A stretch of 64,000 bases of DNA, from contig MU004186.1 of NCBI GenBank assembly GCA_010093605.1, positions 699,765 to 763,764 of the forward strand. The letters are read 5' to 3'. Source of the DNA: Lophium mytilinum. Taxonomy: Eukaryota. Positions 6,916-49,158 of the stretch are shown one piece after another (the first letter of the stretch is position 1; every line of letters starts with the position of its first letter). The notes under the pieces are model-generated. The model was not told the origin of the DNA, did no database searches, and was given only the letters and a program-made list of their open reading frames with translations. Position numbers and translations under genes: made by a program.

Positions 6916-8055
6916 ATCAACGCTTGCTTATCAAATTGGGCTTGAAAAGTACTCGTGTCCCTCACTGTACCCTCTCGTTAGCCGGTGCCTGATGGCGATC
7001 CGATAAATATTAATAGTCTGCTTCAACTGTCAGCAGAGACTGCTTAGAAAATGCTGAAGCTGAAGAGTATGGAGTTGTAAAGTGGCGGGAGATTGTTCGC
7101 TTGCGTCTTTAGATACTAGGCGCCTAACCATTCTATCTACAGACCGGCTAGAATCACCTAGAGAAGCAATTGGGACCTAGGCCTAGATCCCAGGGTGACT
7201 CGACCCTAGAATACTGTGGCGCAACAGTCCTATCTGTGTGAGCTTCAAGTCACTAAAGAGTTATTGGGGTAGATACCGTGATCAAGTCTCACAGTGATGC
7301 GGTCCGTGTTGTGGAACTTTCGCTTCACGTGGGTTGTCCTGTCTCTTTGTGGTAAATCCAAGTAGAGAACGGCCTTCCAGTATCTATTTGCTAAGACTAA
7401 GCAGAAAGTCGGGAATAAGTATCTTACAAAGCTTCTAGTCTGGTAGGCAAACGCTATGGTTGTTACGTTCTAGGGTGTTGCGCAGCTGGAAGAGACGCGA
7501 GTGTCTAATGGTGCGAAGGTTAGCGAATTGGAGCACTTGGCCGCTGGAAAGCGTGTTGAGCTGGCATGACACGGTTGGCATATTGCTTGATTGGTGCGTA
7601 ACAAAGCCTTATCGGGGACAATCATTGGCCTGCAGGGAATGCTGGGGATAGTTGGTGTGTTTTGGAAGCTGTGTCGATGCAACTCGCAAGCCACCGCTAT
7701 CTTAAAATGTCAGCACATCTCTCGCGTCAATCCGTGAACGAGCCTTAGGTATGGCCACTTCAAATGCAACTTACTGCCCCTCAATGTTATGGCAGATTTC
7801 CGCCCTCCACGCGCTCAATACTACTGTCCAACGGCCGTTAAGTAATCAGGGATGATCACGTGACAGACTCTGCGAAACCACCCTAGAGCGCCCTAGCTGA
7901 AGGTTCAGGCGACCCACTACTCCTACGCCCGCAGCTGTCTCACTGCATACCGGTACCGCCACCATTTCGTCGCGCCCCAATACCAACTCTTGATATACGG
8001 GTCACGAACCCTTAGGCCTCCTGTATTCTCTCCCTCACATTCGCCCACTTTCAGA

Positions 8056-9318: not shown

Positions 9319-9455
9319 ATGGCTTAGTATACCCTCACTTTCATTGGCAATCCTCGGCCACGTCTATGAAAATTATGCATCTAAGATTGCTTATTGAATG
9401 AGACTCTGCGTGACAAAAGGTTACACTAAAATAAAAGCTTGAAACATGAGCGAAA

Positions 9456-26199: not shown

Positions 26200-27114
26200 G
26201 GGGTGGTATGAGATGATGGAGATAGCCACTATGCGTGGCGGTAAGTTGTTGGTAAGATGCGTCATCTTACGCATATGCGGTCTTTCCTACTACTCTCTAA
26301 TGTAATTTGATGAGTCTTGAAAAACTGAACAAGATGAAAATTCGCTAATTGAAAAACTGGAAATTCGACATTATGAATGACGGGCTCCTTGAAAACTGGT
26401 TAGCTGCGAGATAACTCTTTCTACCACGACCCACGCGAAATTCTCGCAGTGCTAGGTGCGGCGCATGTGTTCAAATAGCTGTGAAGGAGCGTCTAGGAAT
26501 GCAAGATATCAGACTGGACAGAACGTTCCGATTACGACACTCCTGCTCTCTAAAGGATCGTGAAATTGGAACGCTTTAAAAAACGAGCTATACAATGTAG
26601 AGGCTGTGGACATAGTGCACTTGTAAGCATATCGCGTTGCCAAGAGCTATGCTTCCCTCCAACGAGGTACTTGATATACTTTGAACTCCTTCCGTGGTGG
26701 GGCATCTACGGAAATAGGAGATAAGCCATCTTGGTCGTATGTTAGAAATACAAAGCAACTTGATGTTGCAGCATCTAGAAAATATCATTGAACGCCGTTA
26801 AGCTAACACCGACTATTTCCACCAATGACGTCAGCGTGGAGAAGGTCGTGCATGGGGCGACGATACTAGAAGTAGCGTGCTTAAGTCAGTCAGCTTCGAG
26901 GCTAAACTAACCTGTATAATCTTCGGATCTAGTCGGTAGAAGGAGATAAGTCAAGTGCTAGAATGGACTACGAGTATATAGTCTCAGACTATCTCAGGTC
27001 TTCAGGATATCGAAGGCAAGTCAGCATTGTATTCAACGGCCCACTCGAGTTCTACTACAATCCATAGACCTGATAATTGAGGTCATTCTATTACACGCAA
27101 CAAAACCAACAGTC

Positions 27115-28265
27115 ATGTCTCCTCCATACGGCGCCGAAACCACAGGCGAGGAGCTCGTCCAGGCCTTCGCCAGCCAGATTAAAGGCAAAGTCATATTGAC
27201 CACTGGCGTCTCCCCAGGAGGCCTAGGCGCTTTCTTCGTCGAAGTCATAGCGAAAGCTCAGCCCGATCTACTAATTCTTGCTGGTCGGGACACGACGAAA
27301 GTCCAAAAGACCGCCGACACGATTACGGCCGCACATAAGGATGTGAAAGTTCGCGTTCTTAAGCTGGACCTCGCCTCCCTGAAGCAAATTCGGGAGGCCG
27401 CCGCTACTGTCAATTCATGGACCGACGTTCCGCATATCGATGTGCTGATGAACAATGCGGGAATCATGGCCTGCGATTACGGGAAGTCTGAGGAGGGCTT
27501 CGAAAAGCAATTTGCGACAAACCATCTTGGACCTTTCCTATTTACCAACCTGATTATCGAGAAAGTGATCGCAGCTAGCAGGCCGAGGGTCGTGATGGTC
27601 AGTAGTGACGGGCATCGTTTAGGTGCTATCCGATTCGATGACTACAACTTCGACGTGCGTAGTTTCTGGCTCGCTCATATTCATTCCCAAAGCTAACATA
27701 TAACTTTAGAATGGCGAGACCTACGACAAATGGCGGAGCTATGGACAAAGTAAAACTGCGAATATGCTGTTTGCTCTCTCCTTAGCCGAGAAACTGGGGA
27801 AGCGCGGACTCAGTGCTTACAGCTTGCATCCTGGCGTCATTGGCACCAATCTAGGAGCGAAGTTGGACTGGGAAGTAGATTTTAACGATCTTCGTGAGCG
27901 TTTCTTCCAGATTTTGTGAGCTTCTTGACTGACTAATTCCAAGGTGCTCTGGACAAGGTACAGGGCAACAAGGAGGGCTGGGCCGATTTCAAGTTTAAGA
28001 CAGGTGACAGTGGCAGTGGCGTCGCGACACACGTCTATGCAGCGTTCGATCCAAGCCTGTCAGGTAATTATATCCCATGACGTATTCTTCTCTAGAAAGC
28101 AAAGCATTTTAACGGGGAACAGGTCGCAATGGCGCGTATCTCCAGGACTGTCATGTTGGAGATCCGTGGACGGACACAGTGAAGCCGTGGGCGACAAATG
28201 GTGTTGAGGCGGAGCGTTTATGGTTACTGAGTGAAAAGCTAGTTGGGGAGACGTTCAAGTATTGA
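27115..28265 (+). CDS. Short-chain dehydrogenase/reductase (retinol-dehydrogenase/WWOX-like subgroup)
   Basis: TTGVSPGGLG, NNAGIMA, FATNHLGPFLFTNL, catalytic YGQSK, SLHPG, AERLW..SEKLVGETF. Four exons. Confidence 0.92.
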
Positions 28266-28924
28266 ACAACCGAAACTTATGAATGGAGATTGGAAGAGTG
28301 AGAAGGGTGAGAAGGAAGATGGTGCAAGGTTCGAAACCGCTAATACACATTCAGACGAGCCGAGGCATCGAAAAGTTTAATACCACCTCCTGAGCTTCCA
28401 TCTTCATCATCTTAACAGGAGCTATCAATTCTGCCTTCATCTCGGATGAATCTATGGATCCCCTTAGCATTCCAATGTGGAAGGGGTCAATATGCTCTGA
28501 TTTGATATACCAATATCGACCCAGTTATATATTCTACGTCCCCAGCCTTACCTCTTTCGACACGGAAGAACCCCATTGATTTCACAAGGTTTCTCAGAAC
28601 AGTATAGAGCTTCCCGTCGCTCCACACTTTGGCGAATACCCCGGAACTACGGTTTCGGCATGGCGGCAAGAAGCCGCGTCGCTTAACGATATGGGCTCAC
28701 GGAAAGCAGGCCCCTCGGAACCGTCAGATATATCAGATCGTGTGATCAAAAGAGATACTGCAATTTGGCTCCAATGCCTACGAGCGGCTGAATACGAAAT
28801 TGTCACTGTGCTCAAATTTACTTTAGGAGCCTAAGTTGTGGATGTCCCGTAGCTTCTGTATTCTCCAATGGTCCCGCTCAATCACTTCCGGATTTGATCC
28901 CAAAACTCATTTTCCTAGTGAATC

Positions 28925-30469
28925 ATGAAATTTATACCCGTGTTGTCTCTGACTGCTGTGGCTGTCGCTCAGCAGGCAGCGTATGGGCAGTGTGGTGGTA
29001 ATGGTTGGTCCGGGGGAACTACTTGTGTTTCAGGATATTACTGCAGATTTTCCAGCGACTATTACTCCCAATGCGTTCCTGGTACTGGTGGGCATCCATT
29101 TCTTCAAAAAACTTTAGTGTTGCGTCTGACCTTTCAAGCGTCTGGTGGAGCAACGACGCTCTCGACTGTTGTAGGAGTTGGTACAAGCACCACGCCACCC
29201 ACCACTGGAGCAACAGGCACGATCTCTAAAGCTAGCGGGACGAAATTCACTATTGATGGAGTGACGAAATGTTAGTGGCATTGTACCGTCTTTAGAAGAC
29301 TACCTGTTGACTGGAGTAGATTTCGCTGGTACCAATGCTTACTGGATCGGCTTCCTTACGAACAATGCGGATGTCGACACCGTAATGAGCCATTTGCAAT
29401 CGTCCGGACTAAAGATCCTTCGCGTATGGGGTTTCAACGATGTCACTTCTGTTCCTGGCTCTGGAACGGTGTACTACCAGTCATTCTCCGGCTCCTCTGC
29501 TACGATCAACACGGGCGCAGATGGTCTTCAGCGACTTGACTACGTAGTTCAAAGCGCCGCTGCCCATGGCATCAAGCTCATCATAAATTTTGTTAACAAC
29601 TGGACCGACTATGGCGGTATGGCAGCATATATGAAAGCTTGCGGTGGGTCCACCAACAAGGATTGGTATCAAAGTTCTTCGTGCCAGGCCTTATACAAGA
29701 ATTACATCAAGGCAGTCGTGAGCAGATACTCGAGCTCTCCGGCTATTTTTGCCTGGGAGTTAGCAAATGAGCCGAGATGTAATGGCTGCGATACGTAAGT
29801 GCCGCATCTTCAGAACTATCCCCATCATTTTCCTTCGAGTACGCCATAGCTGATTCGCGGAACAGATCGATTTTAACAAACTGGATCAAAACAACTAGCG
29901 CTTACATCAAGAGCTTAGATTCGACACACATGGTGACTGTTGGTGACGAGGGCTTCGGTGTATCCGGAGGCGATGGAAGCTACCCTTATAGTGAGTCAAT
30001 GCAATATCCTAACGTCACTCCTCGCTAACTTGCTGAAGCATCTGGCGAGGGTTGGGACTGGGATACCAATCTCGCAATCTCTACCATCGATTTCGGCACA
30101 TTCCATCTCTATCCATCAAGCTGTGAGTAACTTCGTCTAGCTTCGGAGGATCATGTGATACTAATATCAATCTTAGGGGGCACTTCTAACGATTGGGGTA
30201 ACGGCTGGATTCAAGCACACGCTGCAGCATGCGTCAAAGCGAACAAACCTTGTCTTCTCGAGGAATACGGTGTCTCTTCTGACCATTGCACCATCGAAGG
30301 TGCTTGGCAAAAGACCTCCTTGTCCACCACTGGCATGGCAGCAGATCTTTTCTGGGATGAGGGTGACCAACTTACCTCGGGCAAGACTTCCGACGATGGG
30401 AACACCATTTTCTACGGTACCAGCGATTGGACTTGTTTAGTTACGAACCATGTAAGCGCTATCGGATAG
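28925..30469 (+). CDS. manA: Secreted endo-beta-1,4-mannanase, GH5_7, with N-terminal CBM1
   Basis: Signal peptide; CBM1 [35 protein letters not shown]; Thr-rich linker; [32 protein letters not shown] (acid/base), LEEYG (nucleophile). About five introns. Confidence 0.95.
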
Positions 30470-30789
30470 GGCAGTCTGTTTTCTGGTGGGCTTCCAACCT
30501 TGCAATTTTCTGCACGATGTGGAGAAATGAGAAAGAATTGCGGACTATGAGCCATTCGAAATGATCCACTTGTGCACTTGCTCAATAATAATCTTGAACG
30601 ATGTTGCCAGGCTACAGAATTGTAGCTCACCTTACAGTGTACTATAAACATCTCAGACGGAGTCCGACTTTCCTCATCGTCCCTTTCGAACTTCCGAGGG
30701 TCTACCTAAATAAGCTTGCTACGCCATTCTCCTACGTATCATGGCGGTTCCCCGCCTGTTCGTCTCTTTCAGGCAAATCTCCCCTGCAC

Positions 30790-30803
30790 CGGTAGCGGCT
30801 CCG
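30790..30803. promoter_or_regulatory. CGG-N8-CCG motif (ClrB/CLR-2/ManR-type Zn2Cys6 site) upstream of the LPMO
   Basis: CGGTAGCGGCTCCG about 430 bp upstream of ATG 31231. Matches the established cellulose-responsive consensus, but the motif is short. Confidence 0.45.
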
Positions 30804-31230
30804 CCGGGATATCATGAAGCCAGGCATCAGCAGGGGCTCTAATATATACCCACCAATAGGACCAACCAGCCGGACTCCAGATTGTATATTAATATAACCC
30901 GGCCGTCTTCCCCTCTGTTACAGCTCGCGTTGTTCTTCACGTCACCTGCCAAACCATGTTTGAATCAGCTCGGCATTGACCATCGTCCAGACGTGTCTAC
31001 TCGCTAGCTTTGGTTGGCGAATCTCAGCTCCTATTATTAATATATCTGAAAATAAGAACACAGAGCACTGTCCAGCATGACTCTCTCCAGGAAAGTTCTA
31101 CGGCAGATAGAGTATCTCCATGACGCAGAAAGAAAAGACCCGCAGAGTCTCCAACCCCATATAAAGCTCCAATGCCTTCATCTAAGCCATGGACACATTT
31201 TCAATTCCACATCGTCTCTGCCAGCTCACG

Positions 31231-32124
31231 ATGAAGTGTCTCCTTATCCTCCTAGCCACGGCCTCATCCATCACTGCCCACTCCACATGGCAAGAACTTT
31301 GGGTCGGCAGCACCGACGAAGCCGGCACCTGTGTCCGCCTCCCGCCCAACAACAACCCCGTGACAGATGTCACATCCAACGACCTCCGCTGCAATGTCGG
31401 CGGCACGACAGGCGTCTCTGGCGTCTGTGAAGTTGCCGGTAAGCCCACGACAGACCTCTCACTCCGCCAATACCAACATCTCTAACCAACCTCCCCAGCC
31501 GGCAACACCCTCACCGTAGAAATGCACGCCCAACCCGGCGACCGCTCCTGCGCCAACCCCGCCATCGGCGGCAACCACTACGGACCTGTAATGGTCTACA
31601 TGTCCGCCGTCGCCGACGCCACCACCGCCGACGGCTCATCGTCCTGGTTCAAGGTTGCGCAGGACTCGTACGCCGGCACGACAGAGAGCTGGGGGACGGA
31701 GATCCTGAACGCGAACTGCGGGAAGCGCACGTTTACGGTGCCAAAGACGCTGGCGAGTGGGAACTATCTGGTTAGGGCGGAGGCAATTGCGCTGCATGCG
31801 GCGAGCAGTTCCGGCGGGGCGCAGTTTTATATGAGCTGTTATCAGAGTAAGTGGTTTCATGATGTGTGTGATGGAAGGGGAAGGGGGGTTTGAGGATGTG
31901 GGCTAATGGGCGCGTGTTAGTTAATGTTACTGGCGGTGGTTCAGCGAAGCCTACGGGGGTGCTGTTTCCGGGGGCGTATAAGGCGAGGTGAGTGATGCTT
32001 TCTGATATGAATGGAGAAGATAAGTAGGAATGCTGATGTGTACAGCGATCCTGGAATTCTCATCAATATTTATCAAACACCGCTCACATACACGGCTCCG
32101 GGACCTGCTGTGTGGACAGGTTAG
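31231..32124 (+). CDS. AA9 lytic polysaccharide monooxygenase (probably C4-oxidising type, no CBM)
   Basis: Signal MKCLLILLATASSITA then His1 (HSTWQEL). CVRLPPNNNPVTDVTSNDLRCN, EMHAQPGDRSC...IGGNHYGP, EAIALH...AQFYMSCYQ, PGPAVW. Exons ~31231-31438, 31499-31846, 31921-31988, 32046-32124. Confidence 0.95.
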
Positions 32125-32431
32125 TGACTGCGGAGGAATGGCATATCAACTTCTTTCGGGGTCGCAGAGAGTAGTCAGTCGTCATCGATCAACAGAGGAA
32201 CACGTGAGACAAGTATGTTATGATACTTGAATTTTGTATGATGGTTGTTCTCCCTGCCGCCGTTGGTAAACCACGACAGAACAAGAGAAGAAGAGTAGCA
32301 CCAATGAAACAGGAAATCAGAATGTGTAAACACCTCCAGATGTATGCCTTACTTGTCGTCTAAGCTTCTTCATCCACCTAGAATCTTTTGCAAGACTCTG
32401 TACTGCTCGTCGAATTGAGCTGCAAGCAGCA

Positions 32432-35088
32432 TCAAGTTTTGCTGCCAGTGTTAGGTCGGCGGCGTTTTGGGGTCGGAGTGCTGGGCTCTCCGTTCTTAGC
32501 CTTCGCAGATCGCTTCTTAGAAGCGTTTGACCTAGCTGACGGTATATCTGGCTCCTGGCCTTCAGGCTCCTGGTCTTTTGGCTGTGCAATGATACCCTTC
32601 CCACCCAGTGAATTGCTGGCATGGTACCAGTCATGGTTTCCAGGAAATCGCCCGCCCCAATCCTGTGTTCGGATATCAAGCTTGCCTCCCTGAGCTGAGT
32701 GTATGTTAGTTGAAGTTACGCAAAGGTTCAGATTGGCTCAAACTTACTCCATTTCGGTGGACCAGCACTGGGAGCAGATATGTTAGGATCAGCTACCGGC
32801 CAGGCACCCTTTGGAGGCAGTCCGTAGAAAGCGCCGCTCTCAGCCCTCGATATCATCGGGAAATATGCTTTCGTTGGATCGAGATCTTTGAAGAGAGCAG
32901 ATCGATCGCGCAGGGAACGTGCCTGTTTGATGCAGCCACATGTATCTGTACTTAGTTAGTTATCCTGCCGTGATAGAACTTGCTGACAAATTAGAGAGAA
33001 GGTTTCCAAAAGTCGCAATTATGAATAACATTACCTTCTTTGAACAGGAGGCTCGCCCGCGTGTGTGCGCATGTTTCTGCTCGATGGAGAACGACTTGCA
33101 ACATCTTCTGCGTGCGATCAGCCACCGCATTCCGCTCCGCACAGGTCCATGTCACGAGCAACTCGCCGTCTTTGCTAGTTCTCGATACCTCCACTGCCCG
33201 GGGCATCTGTGAGATCCGGATCGAGACGATACTTCCAAGACATGCTTTTAGCTCGCCCAAAGAGACATCGCCTATGTCTCGAGCCTCGAACACGTCCATC
33301 ACTTTGTGACAGAGAGACGCAACGGCGTGGTCGCACAGAAAGAGGCCTGCAGCTTTCCCCTTGAGAAGGCCTTCCATCTCCTCCTTTCCAAAATCGCACA
33401 TGTTTTGTTCATGTGCTCCTTCATAGGTCAGCCACTTGTCGTCGATCTTCAATTCTTTGCTTGATCGCGTATAGACAGCATCAATCCTTAGATTCTCGGT
33501 ATGGACAAAGCTGATGCCCATATCTGCGGTGACAGGGTGGGATGCAAGGCAAGCTTTGAGACACCTCGATATATGCTCGAAGAAGCAAGTCGACGGCAAC
33601 ACAGTCTTCTTCGCTTGAAGAAACAGATGATGACGCTCGCGTTCCGGCGTACGGCAAAGGCTGTACTTGGTGAACATGTCCCAAAGTTGTTTTGAGAGCA
33701 GGACCGGTTCGCGCTTTAGGCATTCGCGAATAATATGGGCATCCTGCTCACGTTAGTAAGAAATTTTGAAATAGATACATAAACTTACATGTGTTCCTCC
33801 GCTTGAGAAATAGTAGAATGGACGAAGATTGTCTCCATTTCCGTGATTACTCCCAATCAGATATGCCCAGATCTTCTTAACGGCAGACTCTGGGACGAAT
33901 TGGTCGGCCTCACTAACGTCTGCAGAGGATTGCAGTTCTTCTCGCAACATGCGGGTGTACTTTGCGACAAGAGAAGTCTCAGAGGAGTCGTTGTCGGTGC
34001 TCAATGCCTCTCCCCAAATTCCAGCCAGTTTGCGGGCTTCATCTCTGGCATTGGCCAGGTTGGCTCTATCACGGCCTGTTGTACCGTTTAGGAAGTTGTA
34101 CCCAAACCGAAACTTCTTTCCGCTGGCACTCGGATTCAAAAGCAAGAGACCTTTCAGGTATGTCTTATTTTCGAATTTCGGATCCAGTATGAGATCTCCA
34201 TGGGAGGTCCGGATCTTCTCCGAGGGCGGACTCACGTCAATGGTGACCGTCAGCCAGTCTCTGAACGCTTGCAGAGAAACTTTGACACTGTTTCGTTTTT
34301 CTCCACTCGAAGTTCTGCCGATGCGACTAGCACCAATAGTGACTGCTACGTCCTCCCAAATGTGGCTTTTGAGTTCTCGTGGCTGTCCTTTACTGATGCG
34401 CTCTTTCTCCGCCGACTTTTCTCGTCTGATGGTAATGTCCTTGGCCCTCCTGAGCTGACAGTGAAGGGTTTTATCCCGAGCACTGAATAGGAAAGTCCAC
34501 ATGTACTTTGAGGCTCCGAGTTGAACGGCATGATTTAGAGGGGATCTCTTCAAGACCAACGCCGCGATTTTCATTCCTTCGCCAAACTGACCAGCCTGGT
34601 TGTTGTCCGTTGCTTTTGTGGTTCCGCCCAAGCCAAGGTGTTGAAGTTGAAGGGAGGCTTTGAAATTGACCAACTTCAAAACACCGACCTCATCTTTGTC
34701 CCATCTGAACCTGATATAGCCCATCAACATGTTGTCACTAGGATGACGAGCTTCGATGACAATGGCGCGGCTAGTTTCCTTGTAGGTTGTCTTGAAATCC
34801 CGAACATCATGGACTATATCACTGAGGAACTTTTTGACGATCCCATCTCGCCTTTCTCTTGTTAGCCATGCGCAAGATGTTAGACGAAGAGAGCTCTTAC
34901 CAATTTTGATAGAACTCACGAAACGCTTCTTTGCCTCCCCAGTTTGGTTGGTACGTGGTCTTGATATTGAGCGCTTTCGTCGTGCTCTGCCCCACTCCTT
35001 CGAGATCGTCTTCCCCAGATTCTTCTCCGCCGGAGTGCTCGTACTGTAAGTCTTCATCCACCGCGCCGACGCCCTCGGAATCCGACAT
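32432..35088 (-). CDS. Uncharacterised GHKL/HATPase-fold protein, paralogue A (~806 aa)
   Basis: Exons 35088-34901, 34851-33789, 33743-33035, 32945-32748 and 32694-32432 sum to 2421 nt in frame. WGGKEAFREFYQNWRDG, GGTTK...GQFGEGMKIAALVL, GYNF...GRDR, FPGNHDW, PTPKRRRP. Confidence 0.8.
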
Positions 35089-36156
35089 TGCGAGGGGCGT
35101 GTTGAGTTGTCGCAGGGAAAGTATAGCGTTGTTGTTCTTGTTGAAGAAGAGAAGAAGGCTAAAGCGAAGGTAAGAGAAGAAGCGGGTGGCACGAGCATAA
35201 AAGTGAAGTGAAAAGCAGCGGCAAGTGAAGATTGAAAGGCGGTGAGACTTCGATTGGACTAAAGGTCTAAATGAGAGAGGTACCGACTTAGCGAGACATG
35301 TTGAGACTTTCGCAAGGCATCCATTCGTTGGATACTAGCGACAAGACTTCAGCTAAGTGCCGCTCTTGGTGGCCTGCACATGCGTGCAAAGGACATACAA
35401 ACTTCGCCACTTCTAGGGTCGAGATTAGCGCTATTGTGAGTGAGGTAGACAAGATGACAGCTCTTATAAGATAGTACCTACCACGCAAAATACTTTCTGT
35501 ACCAAGATAGAAGCACTAACCTCTGCTTTGATGAGAAAATCTGTCTGAAAGTCATACCTGCCAGTCTCAAATCCAACACAGCTCTGTTATGGTTACACTC
35601 GGCGCCGAAGGCTGTGCTCCGAACTATGCCTCATCACTCTGGTGATACTCCATGAATTGACTAGTCACTTCACATTGCTTCTCTTCTTCCTTCGTAGTAT
35701 CTCCTCAAAGTCCTAAGCACTTCTGTGGGCGGACGCGAGTGTTCTAATCGATCATGATTCGCAAGATGACGAGGCCCTTGGAGCACAAGCAGAACGCTCA
35801 CGCTGACTATGTTCTACTCGTATTTGAGTCGAATGAGAAATGGAAGATTGAGATGATTTCTTGTTAAGCTATGCTCAGCACCATCCATGGTCTTCGGTGG
35901 CGTCCACTTACTATGCATCCTAACACCAAGGGGAGATGCTACATACCAAAATTACCCTAACAGCAAGTCGTGGCTCAAAGACCTCTAAACAACCTCCTCA
36001 AAAGAAATCACTCAAAGGTGTGAATCGAGGAAAGCGAAAGATCCACTATCGTGATATGCGCATCATATTACTCAATCCAATTACAACCTGACACCATGTG
36101 CTATCACAATGAATCCATCCCCATCACACAACTTTCAAAATCATCCCGAAAATGGA

Positions 36157-39100
36157 CTACCTGCCGAATCTTGGCAATTGGCGGAAGCGCTTAGTCGGCG
36201 AATACCCTCCGTCCTCAGTCGCCCCATCATGGCTGGATACGCTCTCACAGTAAGCGCGCTTGCTGTGGGGAGAAGGCGTACAAGCAGACTGGGTAACGCT
36301 AGGTCTAATTCGAATTGGGTTGTTCTCGCTGGTCCCTAGACCCGAATTCTGAACTGGACCTTGATCTCGAAGCTGTGGCCTTTCTCGAGGCCTCGGCGTC
36401 GAGCCGTAAAGACTATCATGACTTGCAGCCCTGTCTTCATGTGCACTGCCATTGACACCTACAGCAGCAAGGCGGTTCGCTATGGTAGGTTTGGCTATCA
36501 CGGTAGCTGGAGCTTTGGTGGTGGTGAAGGTGGTAGGCTTTGAAGAGCGGGATTCTCGAAGCTCCTTCAGTTTTTCATTGCGAGCTGAAAGGGTGAGCAT
36601 GCAGTGCTCCATCTCTTGCAAGGCAATAGCGGCGGATTTGGCGGTGACCTGGTAGTCACTATCGGCGGGTGTCTCAACTTCAGTGACTGGCGCCTGGGAA
36701 CGTGCAAAAAAGCCTCTTTGGCCGTTGCCGTTAATCGCGCGAAACCAGTCGTGGTCACCAGGGAAGGCGCCCCAGCCAAGGTCCTTGCGATCAATTTGTG
36801 TGTCAAACAAAATTCCTAGGTGATGTTAGTGGCATTACAAGTGGCCAAGATGACTTTGCATAAAACAATGGAACTACAAACTTACTCCATGTTGCATCAG
36901 TGTTCATAAATTTGAAAGCTTCTTGTGCTTTCGTATTGTAGTCTCTGAGCTGACTCAGGACGTCATCGATATCCGAAACATCTTTATCGGGAGTTACTCT
37001 AACTGGAGGAGAGGGCGGAGTACGTTCAAGTGTTGCTGACTCCGGGGACGAGTGTCTAGTTGACGCACGACTTGAAATATGGGGACCCTCGATTGGAGTT
37101 TGCGAGCCTGGAGAGAAAGGATCGGACATGTCGACATCAGAGTCGGATGATGAATCTCCGGATGATATATCGACGATGTCATAATCTAAAGGCTCAACCT
37201 TCAGACCTGCAGCTTCTGTTTCTTCAGCATTGAGGGGCCGTTTACCCGGGGGAGGAACGGCGTAAAATGAGCCATGCTCGGTCGTACAGATCATGGGGAA
37301 GTAGAAATGATCTGCGCTAAGATTTTCGAACACCGCTTTCCGACATGTAGGAGGGATTATCTGCCTGGGACAGTCGCAGGGCTCTATGCACTATTAGAAC
37401 TGGGCGCATTTTCTCCTTGGAGACAAATCATGCATGATGACACAGGGAAGAGACTCAAGGTTCGCTTACCTTCAGATCCCCTATACAAAGATATCTTCCG
37501 CTTATCTCTACATGTATCCGTACGATGAAGAATGACTAATTTCTGCTGATTGGAATGACCTGGTATCATAGCTAGCGGTCCAGACGATTTCCATTTGACC
37601 ATCAAAGCTTGAGGTTTGACACTCAGCGTCACTGCGCGAACCATCTGGGGGATCCGAATGGAACTAATGCTTTCTAGACGAATCTTGAGTTCCTTGACGG
37701 AAGTGCTGTGAGTGTCTTCGGCGGACAGCTCGTCTATCATAATCCTGAACAGGGAGGCAGCTGCATGGTCGCAGAGGAAGAGGTCGTGGAGAAGATACAA
37801 CTTGGTGTCATCTTGGTTCAAAACGCACGATGTATGCTCATGGGCTCCATCGAATGTTAGCCATTTGTCATTTATTTTCCACTCTTTTCCTTCTCTCTCT
37901 TTCCCTGCTCTCTCTTTTCCTTCTCTCAAGTAGATGACGTCGAGGCCTAGATCTCCCGTGTTTACAAATTTAAACTTCATGTCGCTAGTAGCTGGGTCGG
38001 AGTGGAGGCAAGCTGCAAGAGTTTGCAGCATGTGCTTTGCGAAACAAGTGGCGTTCGAAAGATCGGAGAGGGCCGCTTTGTGGAATCTGTGGTAGCGCTC
38101 CTCATCTGGCGTGCGGCACAGTTTGTGATGGCGGAACATATCCCACAGACGCTTTCCAACGTTGACCGGCTCGAGCTTCAGGCAATCTCGAATTATGCTA
38201 GCCGCCTATACACGAGTCAGCTGAGCAAAGTCCACGGTCAATCATTTTACAGCACTAACGTCGGAGCTGCTATCAGCTTGATTGTAGTAGAACGGAGCTT
38301 TTCCATTTCGATAATTGACTGGACTGAGCTTGTATGTCCACACTTTCTTGACTGTGGACCGTGAGGCATAGCTGTCAGCGTCGTGAACATCCGCATAGCG
38401 TTTGCATCCGCTAAACGACTCTTCTAAAAGCTGCGTGTATTTCGCAACAAGCGAAGTTTCAGTGAGGATGTCTCCGTCAGCGCTCAGCGCCTCTCCCCAG
38501 ATTCCTGCAATTATACTAGCCTCTTCGTGTGCAAACGTCATGCTGGCTCTGTCCAGACTCGTCTCACCGTTCCGGAAGTTGTACCCGTATCTCAAGGGCT
38601 TCCCGCTAACGCTTGCGTTAGGTAGTAGTAACCCCTTTAAGTAGGCCTTGTTCACGTATTCGAGAATCAGGTCGCCTTCCCGGGTTCGTATAATGTTTGT
38701 CGGGGGCGCTATGTCAATCGAAACTTCGAGCCAATTTTTGAAGTCGGAAAGATGGATCTTATCACTCTTCTTCTTCCTCTTATCCTGCTCGTCTTGCGTT
38801 CTTTCGCTGCGACCGCTCCCAATCAGCACGGCGACATCTTCCCAGATATTGGCCTTCAATCCTCGAGGCTTGCCTTCGTTCTTGCGATCCTCCTCTTTTG
38901 TTTTCAGTCTTCGTAAAGTGTCTTCTTTCTCTTTTGTTAGACTGCATGTTAATTCTACTTTGGAATTGAACTTAAAATTCCACTTGAAGCATGAACTGAG
39001 TATCCGAACAGTGTGGTTTTGGGGATATCTTCGCATTGCCAGAGCCGCAATCTTCATACCCTCACCATATTGACCGCTCTGTGTTCCGTCGTTATGGGCT

Positions 39101-39574
39101 TTTGTCGTCCCGCCTGTCTTCAAATGGTCCTTATGGAGAGAAGCGTTGAAGTTCACAATCTGCAGGGTGCCAAGTTCGTTCTTGTCCCACTTGAACTGGA
39201 TATATCCCATAAGGCATTTCGTGTGAGGGTTTATGGCCCTGATGATGATTTGAGTCTTCAGCGTCTGCTTCTCTGTACGGAAGTCAGACAGGTTAATGTT
39301 GAAACTACGCACGATGCCATCACGCCTGTCGATTGTTATGGTCTGATCTCCATGTGCGGTAAGTGACTGACCAGTTCTGATAGAACTCTCGGAAAGCTTC
39401 TTTGCCCTTCCAGGATTTCCGGTAGTCGTTTCCGTAGTTTAGACCCTTGGACGTCGATGTCCTGGAAACATCAAACCCATTTTCATCCACCAGAGCGAAG
39501 TCCTCGTTGTCGGAGGCAACTGAAGACTCAATGCCATCATAGAGTTCATCGAAAGCATCCGGGTTCTCTGCCAT
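36157..39574 (-). CDS. Uncharacterised GHKL/HATPase-fold protein, paralogue B (~1053 aa)
   Basis: Exons 39574-39372, 39325-38260, 38205-37470, 37383-36886 and 36815-36157 sum to 3162 nt in frame. WKGKEAFREFYQNWRDG, GGTTK...GQYGEGMKIAALAM, GYNF...LDR, FPGDHDW, SPTKRFR. Confidence 0.8.
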
Positions 39575-40040
39575 ATGTACGAACCGTCCGTAGACAGTGA
39601 TTTAGATACTATATAGGAATACGACCGGCTTAGACAAACACTGGAAAAATCTTGTCAGCCGCTATGAAGGACTTAAAATACGTGATTCCCTCACCAATAC
39701 ACTACTGTCCTTGGAAGAAGTCCAGATCAAGGTCAATCAACGCGATATGTAGTGACAGTGCGACGCAGCCTTCAACAGGCGTACAACCTCTCCTCGGCGG
39801 GCCACAAGTATGAAGTTGAAAGGAGCAAGTTCTTCGGTTGAGGATCGTGATACAGCAGCCTTCACGAGTGGGTTCGGGCTCTGATGAAGCGACAGGTGAG
39901 TTTGAAATTAGGAGGGATTGGGCAGCAGGCAGAAGGGAAGTGAGATGACGGCTGAGGGGCATGACGGGCTACCTGCAGCTACCTACATACAATCACTCTG
40001 GTTGCTGTGCCGCATTAGGCGCTGTGACCTCTAAGCGCCC

Positions 40041-41135: not shown

Positions 41136-43300
41136 TCACCCCCCATAAGACCCCAGATTCCCCGTCACCGCCCTTGTCGCCAGAATCGTAATCCTCTTAT
41201 TATACAACTTCATCATATGGCACACCGGATCCCCAAACACAACCTGGCGCAGTGTCTGATCGTTAACCGTAACCGCCTCCACATCTTCCTGATCGCTGCT
41301 CCCTGGCCTCACCCTAAGCACCACAATCCGGCCAGCCGTAGAAAGAAAAGCCTCCGGGATCGTCCACGAGGGCGCAGGACCCGAGAAGGAGTTCGCCTTA
41401 CCGCCGAGCTGCAGCTGTGGCCTCTGTTTCTCCTTCCGCTTCGCGATCTTGCCCAGTCCGTTCGGCGTTAGTGCGATAGTGCTGACGTTCGCCATCTTCA
41501 GGTTGCCGATCTGGCTGACGCTGTTGCCGATACTGCAATTTGAGCCTGGCGCCGGGGTGGCGTAGAGCTTTAGTAGACTGCCGACTACATTTCTGTCCGC
41601 GCGGCACACAGGATCGCCCTCGTTGACGAAGCCGAAGAAGAGGCTCTTGGCGTGCCTCTTGCCCGGCGGCTTTTGGAGCGGGAGGAGGCTGACGGGTGGC
41701 GCGCCGAAGGTGATGCAGTGGACGCGTTTGAAGAAGCCGGTTAGGTAGGTGAGTTCAGAAGTGACGGTTTCGGAGAGCATGTGGGCGTATAGTAGCGCAG
41801 CAACGGCGCCTCCAGCAGAGTGGCCAGTGATGAGCAGAGAGGAGGCACTGCGTGAGGGATTCTCGGAGAGGAGGGTGCGGAGGCGGGCGGCTACGGGGGT
41901 AATCATTTGGCGGGCGACGTGGAGGAAGCCGCTGTGGCATTTGTTCCCGGGATCGTCCTGAAACTCCTTTTTAGCTTTGAAGTGGTGTTTGAGTGTATGA
42001 GGATAGGCAGCAAAGATTTGAAAATTGATAGTGTGCAAAGGCATCTTCAGACCCTTCTCGTATGTTTGATCGACAAAGTGATAAAAAAAATGAAAGTACA
42101 AAGCAGAATGCGAAGGTCTGAGAATCTAAAGCTTACCAAGAATCCAGTAGCCATCGAAGGCTCAGGTCGAAAATTGACAGCCCAATCCATGAACGTCTGG
42201 CTCCCTCTGATAGCGAAAACAACAGTGTTCATGTCATCGATAGGCAGGCTCTTCAGTACCATGGCTTTCGTGCCCTGCCGCCAATTGGCTTCGACGTGTG
42301 CCTCACGCTCCGATCCCGTCGGCCGTGAGTAAACATTCTCCGAGAACTGAGCCGCTAGACACAGGAGTGGGTAAGTTGGCATGTACCTAGAAACGCTTAG
42401 TAGCCATTACTGACAAAGATATGGAAATGTGCTTACACTTTGAGAGGTGGAAGATGCGGCGGCAACCTCGAGTTGGAATACAGCCAGACTTTAGAAAAGT
42501 AATTCGACCCAGAAACCTGACCCCGATTCGCAGTAGCACTTGGGTAGACATTGTGGATACCTCGAGTTTGCTCCGAAGGGAACGATGAGTCTGTAGGATA
42601 CTGCTCGTACACGACTACTTATCCATCAGCATACAGTTCCCATAGCGACTATCATGTGACAAGTCCACTTACTCAGCTCCTTCTCATCCCCACTAAAGCC
42701 CTCCCCATCAATCGACGTAATCACAGCATCGAACTTCGACGAAATAAGATCACACAGCGCGGCCCCTTGGTTCAGGTAGACAGTGCTCTTCGAGTGCAGA
42801 TTCCCTTGTAAATGACTAACAGAATTGGACGCCGCGTGCAGATTTCCTTGCAAATGACTAACAGAACTGGACGCCGCGTGCACGGGATGCTTGACGACGT
42901 TCAGCGACGATTTCCACTTGCTGTCCTTGTGCGGCAGCGTTGCTAGATGAGCTGTAGACTGATGGCTCGTCAGATACGGCCCGCTGTTCATCTGCGATGT
43001 CACCGGTCGCACGGGTAAGGAAGGCTGAGAAGGCTGCTGTTGCTGATACGGCTGCGTGTACGGCCTCGGACTCGCACTCCCTGACCAGCCCGAATATGGA
43101 GGCGTCGGTGCTGTTGCTTGATTCAAGACAAAAGCAGGAGTAGGTGGCATGAACACCGTGGATTGAGTTGACTGCACTGTTGCGCTTGATTGTGAAGGTT
43201 GGTACCCATTTGGCATTAGCATTGGCGCAGGCTGCGCAGGCTTTTTGGACCCATGCTTCTTCCGTCCCTTGAACTCTTTGCCTAGGAAATGGATCGGCAT
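41136..43300 (-). CDS. Fungal lipase class 3 family protein
   Basis: NSRLPPHLPPLKV|YMPTYPLL, VFAIRGSQTFMDWAVNF, CHSGFL, ITGHSAGG nucleophile motif, TFGAPP, NEGDPV. About four exons with a low-complexity N-terminus. Confidence 0.9.
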
Positions 43301-44445: not shown

Positions 44446-46033
44446 CTAGAAGTCCATGAAAAGATGTTTGTGCCTGTAGGTAAACCTGTTAGCAAATATA
44501 AATGTTCGTCTTCTTAAGGATTTAACATACGGGTCATCACCAGCTTGCCCATATGCCTCTGTCTCTTCCGGGTATTTGTCAAACTGGCTTGAATCACCCA
44601 CACCAGCTCGCACCGGAGGCACGTATGGCGCATCAATGTCCTTCTTCGACAACCGCTCCCACGTCACCTCAGCGAACCAAGGGTGCTGCATAACTTCTCT
44701 GCTCCCCCCATGCAAGTTGCCTAGTCGCTTGGTGAGGTCGGGAGTAATGAGCTGTTGCAATAGATCTTGCGCATCGGGGTGGATGTATGGAGGGTATTTC
44801 ACTTTGCCCTTGAGGATATTTTCGTAAATCTTCATTGGCGATCCAGCGTCCCAGAAGGGTGTAAAACCGGAGAGCATTTCAAAGATGAGAATGCCAAGCG
44901 ACCACCTAAAAACAAAAGTTAGCGGATTCGATTTTCAGTTCAACAAGAATCATCCTACCAATCAACAGACTTGTTGTAGCCTTTCGAAGCAACAACCTCT
45001 GGTGCGAGATAGTCAGGCGTGCCACACAGCGTCCAGGTGATGTCTGGCACTTCTTTGGCGAATCCGAAATCGGTAATCTTGAGGTGGCCATGACGGTCCA
45101 ATAGCAAATTCTCAGGTTTCAAGTCGCGGTAGATGATGTTCATTCCATGGAGGTAGTCCAGCGCCAGAGTGACTTCGGCGGCGTAAAATTTGGCAACTGG
45201 GTTTGGAAAACGCTATTGAGGTTAGCAAAGACAGTCACATGCAACAAAGCGGCGGGGGCGGGGAGGCTCACTTGGGACTTGCGAAGCAGACTGAACAGTT
45301 CACCGCCCTCGACAAAGTCCATGACCATGTATAGATTCTTTGAGTCTTGGAAAGTGCCCCATAGGGTGATCAGAAATGGGTGTTTCACTTGTTGCAACAT
45401 CCGGCGTTCGTCGTTTGTGTGCTCCACCTGCTTCATTTTGACGACCTGCGCCTTCTTCAGGACCTTGACGGCATAGAAGCGCTGATTGTGCTTTGACTGC
45501 ACGAGATGGACTCTGCCAAAGCTACCCGTCCCGAGCGTTCTTTGGATCGTGAAGTCCGTAAGGGTGTATTTGCCCTTTGTCGTCCGCGCCACCTGCGGGA
45601 CCGGCTGGGTAGGCACGGGCGATATGGCGCCGCCATTTGAGGCATCATTCCTCTGTGATCTCTGCTGGGTGCCGGGCGAGGATGTAGTATTGTTTGGGTG
45701 GATGAGGTTCTGTATGCTTGGCAGGTTGTGCTGCGACTGCTGATAAGGTTCCGGGGTGGCTTGCGGCGTCGCATACGGCTGGGAATAGGTGGAGGGGTTC
45801 ATGGGGTCGGCGGACTTGGACGGGGCCGTCGAGGCCGTCGTGGAATGCGAGGCGGCGGCCGAGTCCTGGGTGGTGGTCGACTTGCCGACAGAGAAGGACC
45901 CAGAGGTCTTGGAGAGGGTCGGGGTAATGGGCGATGCCGTGTCTTTGACGGGCGAGGTCGGAGAGTCCAGGTCACGCGAGCCCGCGGAGTCCTTCGTCCT
46001 CTTCTTCTTCAAGAATGACCCGAGAGTAGGCAT
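44446..46033 (-). CDS. pkaC: cAMP-dependent protein kinase catalytic subunit
   Basis: [63 protein letters not shown]-terminal FMDF hydrophobic motif. Three introns. Confidence 0.97.
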
Positions 46034-46727
46034 AAGAGCGGCTTGCAGGAATGCACCCAGCCCAGGCCTGACCGGGGAGCCAGCGGACGTCTCTGGCGCT
46101 CAATGTACGGGGCGAGGAATGCGCGGGACTGGCGGAGTTCAGTAGCAGCGGTAGGGATGGCTAGCGATAGGAATTGGGGGCGAGGTTAGGGGAGTAAGGG
46201 CATGGGAGAGCGATCAGAGCGTTGGGGATGTGAGGCGGGTGGGCGAGTGGAGAGGTGATAGAGCTGCGGGGCCTGTGACGGCCTGCAGGCTGGGTGGGAG
46301 AGAGCTTGGTCGGGATGTGATGTACGCAGGGGGGCAGAACAGCCAGGCGCTTCCGTCAAAGAAAAGGCAGCCTTGCATCATAAAAAGCAAATCGCCATGC
46401 CCAGACGCTGCCCGCCGGAAGCGTTGATGGTGCATCGGACTCGCACACGCCGGGGCGACGAGGTGCATGGTGCTCTAGCAGCAGGCGGGCTTAGCACTGC
46501 AGCTAGGGACAGATAGGGTAGCCGTGATAGGTGCAAAATGAACGAAAATTTGAAGCGCAAACAGTATAGTACAGTACATCAGAGGCATCTCGTCGTTGAC
46601 CCGTATCCTGGCCGTGGGGATGCGCTATCCTGTCGACTCCGGCCACTCAAACGCCAGCCCATGCTCCCACAATACTCGAGACCCATATCAAGACCCATAT
46701 GCACAGCTCCGCGGCGCATCATCGCAT

Positions 46728-48050: not shown

Positions 48051-48300
48051 CCTTCAGCTCATCAAACTCGTCATAAAAGGGATCCGTACATTCCACAGCT
48101 CGTGCAAGACAGTCTTGAAGTTTCAAAATGACGCGGTGTCATGTTGGCGACGGCAGGGCGGGCTGTTTACGGCCTCTCCCGTGTTGCTCGAGCAACGCGC
48201 CGCACGTGAAGGTCTTGGCATCAAATCTAATTCACGACCACCGCTTTAACTCCACCTAAAAGCCACCCCCCCTCAAGCTCCAACCTCCCGCCCTGCCACG

Positions 48301-49158
48301 ATGAGCTCGAAATTCAAGCCCGAAACCACCCACAAGGCCGACGCGACCGCCCTCCTCGACGACCGCGGCTACTCCGGCCTCCTCATTCGCGGCCAGAACC
48401 CCGCGCTCCTCTTCGAAAAGGCCGTGCGCGACCGCATCACGGAGTCCTACTACTGGAAGGAGCAGTGCTTCGGGCTCAATGCCGCCACACTATGCGACCG
48501 CGCCGCAGAGCTCACTGCCATCGGCGGGACATACGGCGGCGTGGGCAAGCCGACGCCGTTCCTATGCCTCGCGTTTAAGCTGCTGCAGCTCGTGCCCCAG
48601 CGCGAGGTCATACTCGAGTACCTGAACTTCCACGGGGATGAGGAGGGCGGGGAGGATGGAGACACAAACGGCGAGGGCGATGTCGAGGGTGGGGCGGTGC
48701 AGGATCCCCAGGCGTTGGGGAAGCGCGGGGAGTTCAAGTACCTGCGCGCGCTGGCGGCCTTCTATATCCGGCTTGCGTGGGAGCCGGTGGATATCTACAC
48801 GACGCTGGAGCCGTTGCTGGCGGATTTCCGGAAGCTGAGAAGGCGGACGAGGGAGGGGTTTGCGCTGACGTATGTGGATCAGTTTGTGGATGATCTGTTG
48901 ACGAAGGATCGGATTTGTGCGACGAGTTTGTGGAAGTTGCCGAGTCGGGCGAACTTGGAGGATCTGGAGATGCTGGAGCCGAGGGTTAGTCCGCTGGGGG
49001 ATGAGATTGAGGAGTTGGATCGGGATGATGAGGAAATAGAGGGTGGGAGTGATGGAGAGGTCGAAGAGAGGCGGAATGGAGAGCGGGATGGGTCGTCGGA
49101 GAAGTCGCGGAATGGGTTTATGAGGCGGTATTCCGACAGTGGGAGCGAGAATGATTGA
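48301..49158 (+). CDS. PRP38: Pre-mRNA splicing factor Prp38
   Basis: GQNPALLFEKAVRDRITESYYWKEQCFGLNAA, PTPFLCLAFKLLQL, FKYLRALAAFYIRL, LEPLLADFRKL, YVDQFVDDLL. Single exon. Confidence 0.96.
   Translation: MSSKFKPETTHKADATALLDDRGYSGLLIRGQNPALLFEKAVRDRITESYYWKEQCFGLNAATLCDRAAELTAIGGTYGGVGKPTPFLCLAFKLLQLVPQREVILEYLNFHGDEEGGEDGDTNGEGDVEGGAVQDPQALGKRGEFKYLRALAAFYIRLAWEPVDIYTTLEPLLADFRKLRRRTREGFALTYVDQFVDDLLTKDRICATSLWKLPSRANLEDLEMLEPRVSPLGDEIEELDRDDEEIEGGSDGEVEERRNGERDGSSEKSRNGFMRRYSDSGSEND

Follow-up and report, generated by a model that had tools for sequence, protein, structure and literature searches.

Two adjacent genes on the minus strand of a 64,000-nucleotide stretch of the Lophium mytilinum genome (contig MU004186.1, positions 699,765 to 763,764; hereafter called the window) encode expressed paralogues, here named gene A and gene B, for which the most likely role, with a probability of about 0.5, is that of a nucleotide-driven clamp on chromatin or DNA. 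The reading draws on a predicted GHKL-type structure, on the kinship of the N-terminal half to a phage protein family, and on fungal relatives that carry a C5 DNA methyltransferase (DNMT)-like domain or a bromodomain. According to its taxonomic record, L. mytilinum belongs to the Mytilinidiales within the Dothideomycetes. The pair is one ordinary member of a large fungal family, and what sets it apart is chiefly how unequally its two copies have diverged.

Gene models and splicing

The minus strand of positions 32300-39700 was read and the exons were joined. This exactly reproduced what an earlier note had described from the letters of the window: two head-to-tail genes with coding sequences (CDS) of 3162 nt (A) and 2421 nt (B), each interrupted by four introns at equivalent positions that splice in frame (Table 1). 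All eight coding introns are of the GT..AG type, measure 45-89 nt and show phases 2, 0, 1 and 1 in A and B alike. Their sites are homologous between the genes, lying after QNW, before IIR.CLK, before C.C and after a W, and in both genes the first intron interrupts the N-box motif itself, directly after QNW. Each spliced frame is complete, with a single terminal stop in gene A. The blocks that had been noticed along the whole length despite clear divergence amount to 46.5% identity over 694 amino acids (aa; E 0.0), and the gene A protein owes its extra length to an acidic, serine-rich insert following the FN3-like part and to an extended tail. The spliced translations are letter-identical to the database proteins P0002 (A) and P0001 (B), both of which are entered at NCBI as "hypothetical protein". 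The earlier description of the genes as unannotated therefore holds for their function and fails for the gene models, which NCBI already has.

Splicing was examined with a public run, X1, which is stored as contigs, whose RNA kind is a guess and which contains 0.44 of the sampled words. Its contigs were placed on positions 32000-40000 and serve as splicing evidence only, since contig depths are not comparable between A and B and uncovered parts of gene B are uninformative. A contig of 3593 nt omits segments of 70, 86, 54 and 46 nt, which are exactly the four introns of gene A, together with a 54-nt intron in the 5' untranslated region (UTR), upstream of the ATG at 39574. Another contig of 164 nt omits the 45-nt intron 2 of gene B. 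As the omitted introns are bounded by CT..AC on the plus strand, these contigs represent spliced minus-strand transcripts. The gene A model is thus fully supported by splicing at four of four coding introns, and the gene B model is supported at one junction.

Predicted fold and domain layout

An AlphaFold2 model of the gene B protein was built from a 108-row alignment and reached a predicted local distance difference test (pLDDT) value of 85.7 and a predicted template modelling (pTM) score of 0.76, with disorder limited to residues 1-29, 710-737 and 761-806. In this model, a disordered head is followed by GHKL-like and transducer-like domains (about 35-400), a middle module (about 400-595), an FN3-like sandwich (about 592-707) and a disordered tail, which contains a short FPGNHDW hairpin and a basic end. 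A Bergerat sandwich followed by a transducer resembling ribosomal S5 domain 2, the arrangement that marks GHKL members, is present in the predicted model. The Bergerat/GHKL fold that the earlier note had proposed from motifs, together with the transducer module, is therefore very probable on the strength of the model, and both structure searches returned GHKL proteins.

A Foldseek search against the PDB gave 87 matches at E<=1e-3, the best of which were all full-length chains of the Hsp90 family (6xlg_A, E 7.9e-8). When the Foldseek list was realigned with VIA-align, Z-scores ranged from 11.9 to 14.2 and all 50 entries listed were GHKL proteins. TRAP1 (7kcl_B) scored 14.2 and Hsp90 (7l7i_A) 13.9, the latter with a root-mean-square deviation (rmsd) of 4.7 over 259 residues, placing model residues 38-394 on chain residues 26-463. 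Topoisomerase VI-B (1mx0_B) followed at 12.8, ParE (1s16) at 12.6, GyrB (1ei1) at 12.3 and MORC2 at 12.3, and GRP94, HtpG and the T6 topoisomerase II were also among the matches. A search independent of Foldseek against 48,161 representative chains recovered the same families on residues 38-450: TRAP1 (Z 13.3), GRP94 (13.2), the T6 topoisomerase II ATPase (12.3), ParE (12.1), MORC2 (11.6), SMCHD1 (10.7) and MORC3 (10.4). In the same search, FN3 domains matched residues 592-707 with Z of about 10-11 and an rmsd of about 2-3 Å over about 90 residues. A second model, of the C-terminal fragment of the relative P0152 (pLDDT 78.4), agreed with this, as 50 of the 50 listed entries were of FN3 type (Z 9.1-11.0). 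Foldseek found no match to this C-terminal model in the PDB at E<=1e-3, and the weak rows were all FN3.

For residues 400-600, a structure search of the Atlas returned phage relatives first, with a template modelling (TM) score of 0.53 normalised by the query over 148 residues, and then zincin peptidase clusters (M48, M78/IrrE, YgjP/SprT-like) with TM 0.31-0.40. The middle module may therefore be weakly zincin-like, which is offered as a lead. A test of a complex between the N-terminal halves of A and B, in which the alignments went unused, scored 0.00 and counts neither for nor against such a complex.

Among the known systems, the Hsp90 family (Hsp90, TRAP1, GRP94, HtpG) resembles the predicted model in having a Bergerat domain followed by a middle or transducer domain, in giving the best Z-scores (13-14) and in sharing the E-x3-N-x2-D and G-x-x-G-x-G motifs. 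It differs in that no match exists at the sequence level, that the adenine-binding Asp of Hsp90 is an Asn here, and that neither the MEEVD motif nor the C-terminal dimerisation domain was recognised in A or B, which carry an FN3-like domain instead. MORC and SMCHD1 are alike in combining a GHKL domain with an S5-type transducer (Z 11.6-12.3 for MORC2, 10.4 for MORC3 and 10.7 for SMCHD1), in a lid of the form G.T.K...G.(F/H)GEG.K in the style of HATPase_c_3, and in a link to chromatin that the fusions of the relatives suggest. Unlike in these proteins, no CW zinc finger, MORC coiled-coil insert, hinge or D.G.G motif was found in A and B.

Conserved residues

Residue conservation was counted in the alignment of 108 relatives and is given in gene B numbering. 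The N-box E-x3-N-x2-D is kept (E58 in 72/79, N62 in 71/79 and D65 in 85/87 rows) and lies within the predicted helix 52-72. Its earlier assignment is supported by this helix and by its alignment with RE.IQNALD of the phage relatives; it also aligns with the N-box of MutL, without significance. The assignment of the ATP lid or G2 box fared equally well, as it is near-invariant across the relatives: G138 is found in 108 of 108, K142, G153 and K157 each in 107, G150 and G155 each in 106, and E154 in 102. Other conserved residues are spread over the latter half of the GHKL-like domain and the transducer-like part, namely D230 (105/106), G281 (108/108), Y314 (107/107), R323 (104/108), R325 (106/108) and W342 (106/108). 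From its position within the transducer-like part, GYNF...RDR is a plausible phosphate-sensing transducer loop.

The adenine-binding Asp of the G1 box (D-x-G-x-G) is a hallmark of this fold, and its replacement by Asn abolishes ATP binding in Hsp90 and GyrB. The G1-box position of the present family was assigned from secondary structure and profile alignments. Because Asn takes the place of the adenine-binding Asp, the classical ATP pocket appears to be conserved only in part, and the use of ATP is uncertain.

Two sets of conserved Cys and His residues could bind zinc. One comprises H528, C533 (46/46), C554 (43/46) and H556, the other H637 (64/71), C642 (55/61), C656 and C658 (49/52); the invariance of H528, H556 and C656 refers to a six-protein alignment only. 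At the C-terminus, the basic residue R798 is present in 45 of the 51 rows that reach it. KRAR-type ends occur in many relatives, including the fused ones, and look like nuclear import signals.

Phage and bacterial relatives

The earlier note had remarked on a likeness to stand-alone phage ATPase domains of this type, and this likeness proved to be well founded. The PHROGs family phrog_6077, of function unknown, matched seven of seven fungal proteins (E 4.1e-11 to 1.1e-18). A pattern scan of IMG/VR yielded 16 loci (L003-L018) with open reading frames (ORFs) of about 380-540 aa and 23-26% identity to exon 2 over up to about 280 residues. Twelve phage ORFs from these loci were aligned. Their alignment begins with Y..DW...RE.IQNALD, a textbook Bergerat N-box, continues with G.T.K...G.FGEGLK and GYN...DRDR, and ends with a zincin-type HE.AH..DG...H motif. 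With hhalign, the fungal exon-2 profile matched it at 99.8% probability (E 1.4e-28, 215 columns) and the full fungal profile at 99.9% (E 1.5e-35, 252 columns, N-box included). Homology between the fungal N-terminal half and phrog_6077 is thus practically certain.

Structure searches pointed in the same direction. The best matches in BFVD were uncharacterised phage proteins (E 5.4e-16 to 1e-13), including one from Erwinia phage pEp_SNUABM_01, and viral Hsp90, rIIA, HK-like ATPases and topoisomerases came later. In the Atlas, a 459-aa phage cluster matched residues 36-701 with a TM-score of 0.78 when normalised by the phage protein. An indexed search collected 113 relatives of the phage family, the named ones all hypothetical, and 20 of the 113 carry a precomputed PF25856 (MPN635_N) label, which the local Pfam copy did not reproduce. 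Local Pfam gave the phage relatives weak HATPase_c and HATPase_c_3 matches N-terminally and SprT-like, M48 and DUF6782 matches C-terminally, and one of them a weak SACS match (E 0.005). A tblastn search against GenBank phages returned only weak matches (H1-H17, best E 5e-3), all to hypothetical proteins. In Pseudomonas phage QdP_Psa3, the related gene sits among early nucleotide-metabolism genes (nucleotidyltransferase, RNase H).

Fungal and phage proteins share about 250 N-terminal columns, the motif order Y..W, RE..QN..D, G.T.K, G.(F/H)GEG.K, GYN...RDR, and a G1-box position that is mostly Asn (Asn or Ser in phages). They differ in their other parts. The phage proteins are about 440-465 aa long and end in the zincin-type HE.AH...H domain, while HExxH is absent from the fungal alignment and hhalign gave only 0.2% probability for a match between the fungal middle module and the phage C-terminal domain. 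The FN3-like domain, the long disordered ends and the introns are found only in the fungal proteins.

A scan of prokaryotes with one genome per species gave two loci, of which one (L002) is a true, distant bacterial relative. It lies in an Omnitrophota metagenome-assembled genome (MAG), where an ORF of at least 1485 aa (L002:1807-6261) runs off the end of the locus and contains two GHKL-like domain copies with the motifs ..QN..DGH.. and ..GKHGEGLK.AAL... It matches phrog_6077 (E 1e-10) and PF13589 (E 0.006) and is a bacterial tandem-domain form of the family. The other locus, L001 (NYXK01000028.1), is filed as a Deltaproteobacteria MAG and was rejected as a bacterial homologue, because the family member is split over four frames by introns and has a HET-domain neighbour, as expected of a fungal contig. 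The HET-domain gene (PF06985, E 1.8e-27) is divergently placed beside the family member. Since the N-terminal half is homologous to phrog_6077, a phage or a bacterium was probably the source from which fungi acquired the family.

The fungal family and its fusions

When exon 2 of gene B was used as query in a word-indexed search, the matches were the Lophium pair, a similar pair in Mytilinidion resinicola and two longer proteins, one from Fonsecaea (1311 aa) and one from Exophiala (1380 aa, carrying PF00145). The Mytilinidion proteins (P0003 and P0004) measure 1041 and 784 aa and are both encoded on a contig of 665,786 bases. A profile of these six proteins searched against 1.84 billion cluster representatives gave 3292 matches at E<=1e-3, of which 1672 remained at E<=1e-10 and 475 at E<=1e-30, numbers that mix fragments and genes, as many of the short matches are single exons from metagenome gene calls. 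Such short matches start just after the QNW intron and continue past the end of exon 2 into intron sequence. A further indexed search returned 50 proteins, 30 of them with an organism name, and all named ones were hypothetical or uncharacterized. The genera are Lophium, Mytilinidion, Glonium, Plenodomus, Lophiotrema, Byssothecium, Phialocephala, Phialophora, Cladophialophora, Aspergillus, Sporothrix, Lasiosphaeris, Cladobotryum, Daldinia, Hypoxylon, Apiospora and Fusarium, plus one Xylariomycetidae sp. We take all 30 to belong to the Pezizomycotina.

Pfam scans covered single exons as well as whole proteins. No Hsp90 family matched P0001-P0006 at E<=0.1, nor P0001, P0002 and P0012 at E<=10. 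The statement that the proteins are not Hsp90, MutL or topoisomerase II is therefore upheld at the sequence level, as neither Pfam nor PDB profile searches gave a match. The sole near-match among PDB profiles was a stretch of a calicivirus capsid (E 0.17) with the common string "QNW.DG", which was judged to be due to chance. The literature searches turned up no description of the fungal family or its phage sister. The GHKL superfamily itself is well known; curated models are lacking for both the fungal family and its phage sister. The family differs from the described GHKL branches in its G1-box Asn, its zincin-like or Cys/His middle module, its FN3 domain and its fusions to an apparently dead DNMT fold.

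These fusions were found by a Pfam scan of the 34 longest of 150 listed matches, a choice by length that favours fusions. At E<=1e-3, ten of the 34 carry PF00145 at their C-terminal end, nine scoring above the Pfam cut-off, and one carries a bromodomain (E 6.8e-18); P0006, P0156 and P0157 also carry PF00145. The group with a DNMT-like domain comprises P0005-P0019, P0052, P0116, P0156 and P0157. The best PDB match of one fused domain is M.HaeIII (E 1.8e-7), and motifs VIII, IX and X are recognisable. Across the 13 fused members aligned, ENV shows no conservation, and P.VLG stands in place of the F.G.G loop of motif I. The fused domain thus looks like an inactive DNMT fold and may be a DNA-directed targeting or binding part. 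Compared with the fungal C5-DNMTs (DIM-2, RID, DNMT1, DNMT5), the relatives share the PF00145-type end and, as in DNMT5, the combination of an ATPase-type module with a DNMT fold. They differ in that this module is GHKL and not SNF2, and that 12 of 13 lack the catalytic Cys while ENV and F.G.G show no conservation. The accessible parts of two overviews of fungal DNMTs and of a paper on Aspergillus chromatin modifiers cover DIM-2, RID, DNMT1, DNMT2 and DNMT5 and mention no GHKL fusion.

Duplication and unequal divergence

A FastTree analysis of 36 family members gave the topology (Glonium,(Lophium B,(Mytilinidion B,(Lophium A, Mytilinidion A)))) with SH-like (Shimodaira-Hasegawa-like) supports of 97-100. 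The duplication is therefore specific to the lineage of Lophium and Mytilinidion, and both copies have been retained in both genera. The idea of a rare system specific to this pair was overstated in the earlier note, as the pair reflects one lineage-specific duplication within a large family of the Pezizomycotina. What distinguishes the pair is the retention of a conserved and a fast-evolving copy in two genera. Between Lophium and Mytilinidion, the A copies share 73.9% identity over 1039 aa, whereas the B copies share 43.3% over 699 aa and are no closer to each other than A is to B within one genome. Branch lengths are 0.2 and 0.18 for A and 0.74 and 0.73 for B, so that A is the slowly evolving and B the fast-evolving copy.

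Of the residues with at least 85% conservation across the family, both Lophium copies retain almost all, with two exceptions. One is the clade-wide Phe or Tyr in place of the majority His in G.HGEG. The other concerns Lophium A, which has Leu in place of the first Arg of RDR (window region 38560-38575, GYNF..G.TSLDR), an Arg present in 104 of the 108 relatives, including Mytilinidion A. Judged by these residues, neither Lophium copy looks decayed.

Interpretation

Chromatin compaction, silencing and DNA topology depend centrally on GHKL clamps, among them MORC, SMCHD1, Hsp90 and the topoisomerases. By analogy with them, nucleotide binding would cause the N-terminal domains of A and B to close and dimerise, and closure would trap or remodel a substrate by gating a cavity made by the middle and FN3 domains. 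The odds of such nucleotide-driven clamping are about even. Chromatin or DNA in the nucleus is the proposed substrate, because relatives repeatedly carry a C5-DNMT-like domain or a bromodomain and the tails end in stretches resembling nuclear import signals; this part of the proposal is more tentative and falls somewhat short of even odds. The DNMT-like domain, apparently inactive, would more likely serve as a DNA-binding part. The earlier suggestion of a MORC-like module for chromatin, genome defence or non-self recognition gains indirect support from these fusions as far as a link to chromatin or DNA is concerned.

Several results weigh against a nucleotide-driven chromatin or DNA clamp. The G1-box Asp position, which closes strand 118-125, is occupied by Asn in 105 of 107 relatives; the residues after it read F.A.L rather than G.G, and a D.G.G motif is missing. 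No significant sequence match in Pfam, NCBIfam, PADLOC or the PDB covers the conserved core, and HATPase_c_3 (PF13589), the type of domain found in MORC, was touched by only 4 of 58 N-terminal domains (best E 0.076), below its 25-bit cut-off. A comparison with one MutL by hhalign was not significant (4.3% probability with the phage profile and 0.2% with the fungal profile). TM-scores to Hsp90 are low in Foldseek (0.2-0.29), because the domains are differently oriented, and the full-length rmsd is large. Pfam found neither PF00145 nor a bromodomain in the Lophium proteins P0001 and P0002, and the sample in which these fusions were counted was chosen by length. In the MAFFT alignment, the catalytic Cys of motif IV is lacking in 12 of 13 fused members, and the DNMT-like domain is therefore uninformative on methylation. 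The nuclear location is based on basic motifs alone, and the 43% identity of the B copies between genera is no less compatible with a conflict role than with housekeeping work in chromatin.

Such a conflict role is the main rival, albeit an unlikely one, and is favoured by the fast evolution of B, by the relationship to phage proteins and by the likeness to Tiamat-type GHL proteins. A and B would then form a non-self or immune-type module comparable to GHKL sensors and switches like Tiamat, sacsin-type GHL proteins and phage rIIA, with B as the sensor, A as its conserved partner, and mycoviruses, transposons or incompatible nuclei as targets. The nearest non-fungal relatives are indeed phage proteins, with rIIA and viral HK-like ATPases next in BFVD, and the long branches and lower identity of the B copies would fit a sensor. 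Fast evolution of B is equally explicable by relaxed constraint after duplication, though, and B retains all core residues. The family member at L001 adjoins a HET-domain gene, but this neighbour is a single case, and Pfam found no nuclease, HET, NACHT or other effector domain in A or B. According to the accessible part of a preprint on Tiamat, GHL ATPases are joined there to a metalloprotease-like fold that is inactive, and Het-6-like parts are fused to Tiamat-like proteins of fungi (bioRxiv 10.64898/2026.09.30.754977). The weakly zincin-like middle module would resemble this arrangement, and as far as that part of the source goes, the Tiamat, NO VEIN and sacsin-type GHL proteins likewise combine a GHL ATPase with a metalloprotease-like fold without HExxH and have prokaryotic and eukaryotic members. 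Unlike them, A and B are much shorter, and no DUF3684, TPR-like repeats or PD-(D/E)xK (NOV_C) nuclease was detected. PADLOC reported no Tiamat match for any of the six proteins: P0001-P0004 matched no family at all, and the rows shown for the fused relatives P0005 and P0006 contain methyltransferase models alone, matched through the DNMT-like domain.

The Asn in the G1 box is also a reason to consider nucleotide-independent pseudo-enzymes, in which the Bergerat domain would act as a scaffold without binding ATP and the FN3 and middle domains would make protein contacts. The same position is mostly Asn or Ser in the phage relatives, and the fused DNMT-like partner looks inactive as well (12 of 13 without the Cys, no ENV, altered motif I). 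This explanation is nevertheless improbable: the catalytic Glu, the Mg-binding Asn, the lid Gly and Lys and G-x-x-G-x-G are kept at 90-100% across the deep family, which is hard to explain without a phosphate-bearing ligand, and an Asn could still hydrogen-bond a purine. Least probable, with only a slim chance, are Hsp90-like chaperones or co-chaperones using FN3 as the client-binding part. Hsp90, TRAP1, GRP94 and HtpG do give the best structural matches of longest range, reaching model residue 592 in several rows. These long-range alignments have an rmsd of 12-14 Å, however, their Z-scores lie within 1-2 units of those of topoisomerase II, ParE, GyrB and MORC, no Hsp90 family matches by sequence, and the fusions are of DNA or chromatin type rather than TPR or co-chaperone parts.

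The clamp on chromatin or DNA can be extended into a broader scenario. A phage-derived GHKL clamp may have been domesticated early in the Pezizomycotina as a novel class of chromatin or DNA machine, which would read another nucleotide, or ATP in an altered way, through the Asn in place of Asp. Dead DNMT domains and bromodomains would have been recruited repeatedly as its targeting parts, and in the Mytilinidiaceae, A together with the rapidly diverging B would form an asymmetric genome-defence pair. As a whole, this scenario is rather doubtful.

A MORC-type system is not known from filamentous ascomycetes. With a confident GHKL-transducer prediction, a clear phage sister family, recurrent DNMT-like fusions and hundreds of sequence clusters, the family offers an entry point to the question of an unrecognised GHKL-based machine for chromatin or genome defence in the Pezizomycotina. 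It also raises the questions of what role the widespread phage phrog_6077 proteins play and how a GHKL pocket works with an Asn in place of the adenine-binding Asp.

Genomic surroundings

The positions of the genes, their exons and their neighbours are given in Table 1. A check of the flanks agreed with the placement of the pair between an AA9 lytic polysaccharide monooxygenase (LPMO) and a lipase. The neighbours are ordinary fungal genes with no evident connection to the pair.

Table 1. Features of the gene pair and its surroundings, in window coordinates.
Feature	Position	Strand	Description
Gene A	CDS 36157..39574	-	5 exons, 3162 nt, 1053 aa; NCBI BU16DRAFT_317363 (P0002)
Gene A 5' UTR intron	39641..39694	-	54 nt, GT..AG; joint 39640/39695 (CT..AC on the plus strand) in a spliced X1 contig
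Gene A exon 1	39372..39574	-	Acidic disordered head and N-box start (..AFREFYQNW)
Gene A exon 2	38260..39325	-	Remaining GHKL-like domain and transducer-like domain
Gene A exon 3	37470..38205	-	Middle alpha/beta module (HE...C and F.CDH motifs) and start of FN3-like domain
Gene A exon 4	36886..37383	-	C.C motif, remaining FN3-like domain, acidic/Ser-rich insert not in gene B
Gene A exon 5	36157..36815	-	FPG.HDW motif, long low-complexity tail, stop codon
Gene B	CDS 32432..35088	-	5 exons, 2421 nt, 806 aa; NCBI BU16DRAFT_606081 (P0001)
Gene B exon 1	34901..35088	-	Disordered head (residues 1-29) and N-box E58, N62
Gene B exon 2	33789..34851	-	Residues 63-417: GHKL-like and transducer-like domains; D65, N125, G138/K142, G150-x-x-G153-E-G155-x-K157, G281, Y314...R323-D-R325
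Gene B exon 3	33035..33743	-	Residues 418-653: middle module (H528, E529, C533, C554, D555, H556) and first FN3-like strands (H637, C642)
Gene B exon 4	32748..32945	-	Residues 654-719: C656.C658 motif and remaining FN3-like sandwich
Gene B exon 5	32432..32694	-	Residues 720-806: FPGNHDW hairpin, disordered basic tail, KR-rich end, stop codon
AA9 LPMO	about 31.5-31.9 kb		Neighbour, from flank check
Class-3 lipase	41136-42406 (41.1-42.4 kb)		Neighbour, from flank check
Neighbouring genes	28922-31893, 41136-42406, 44446-46099, 48250-49158, 26962-27696		CBM1+GH5 cellulase-family enzyme, AA9 LPMO, class-3 lipase, Ser/Thr protein kinase, PRP38, short-chain dehydrogenase

Elsewhere in the window, positions 8001-12000 show a strong skew in composition, with GC skews of -0.18 and -0.23 and an AT skew of -0.35 at 10001-12000.

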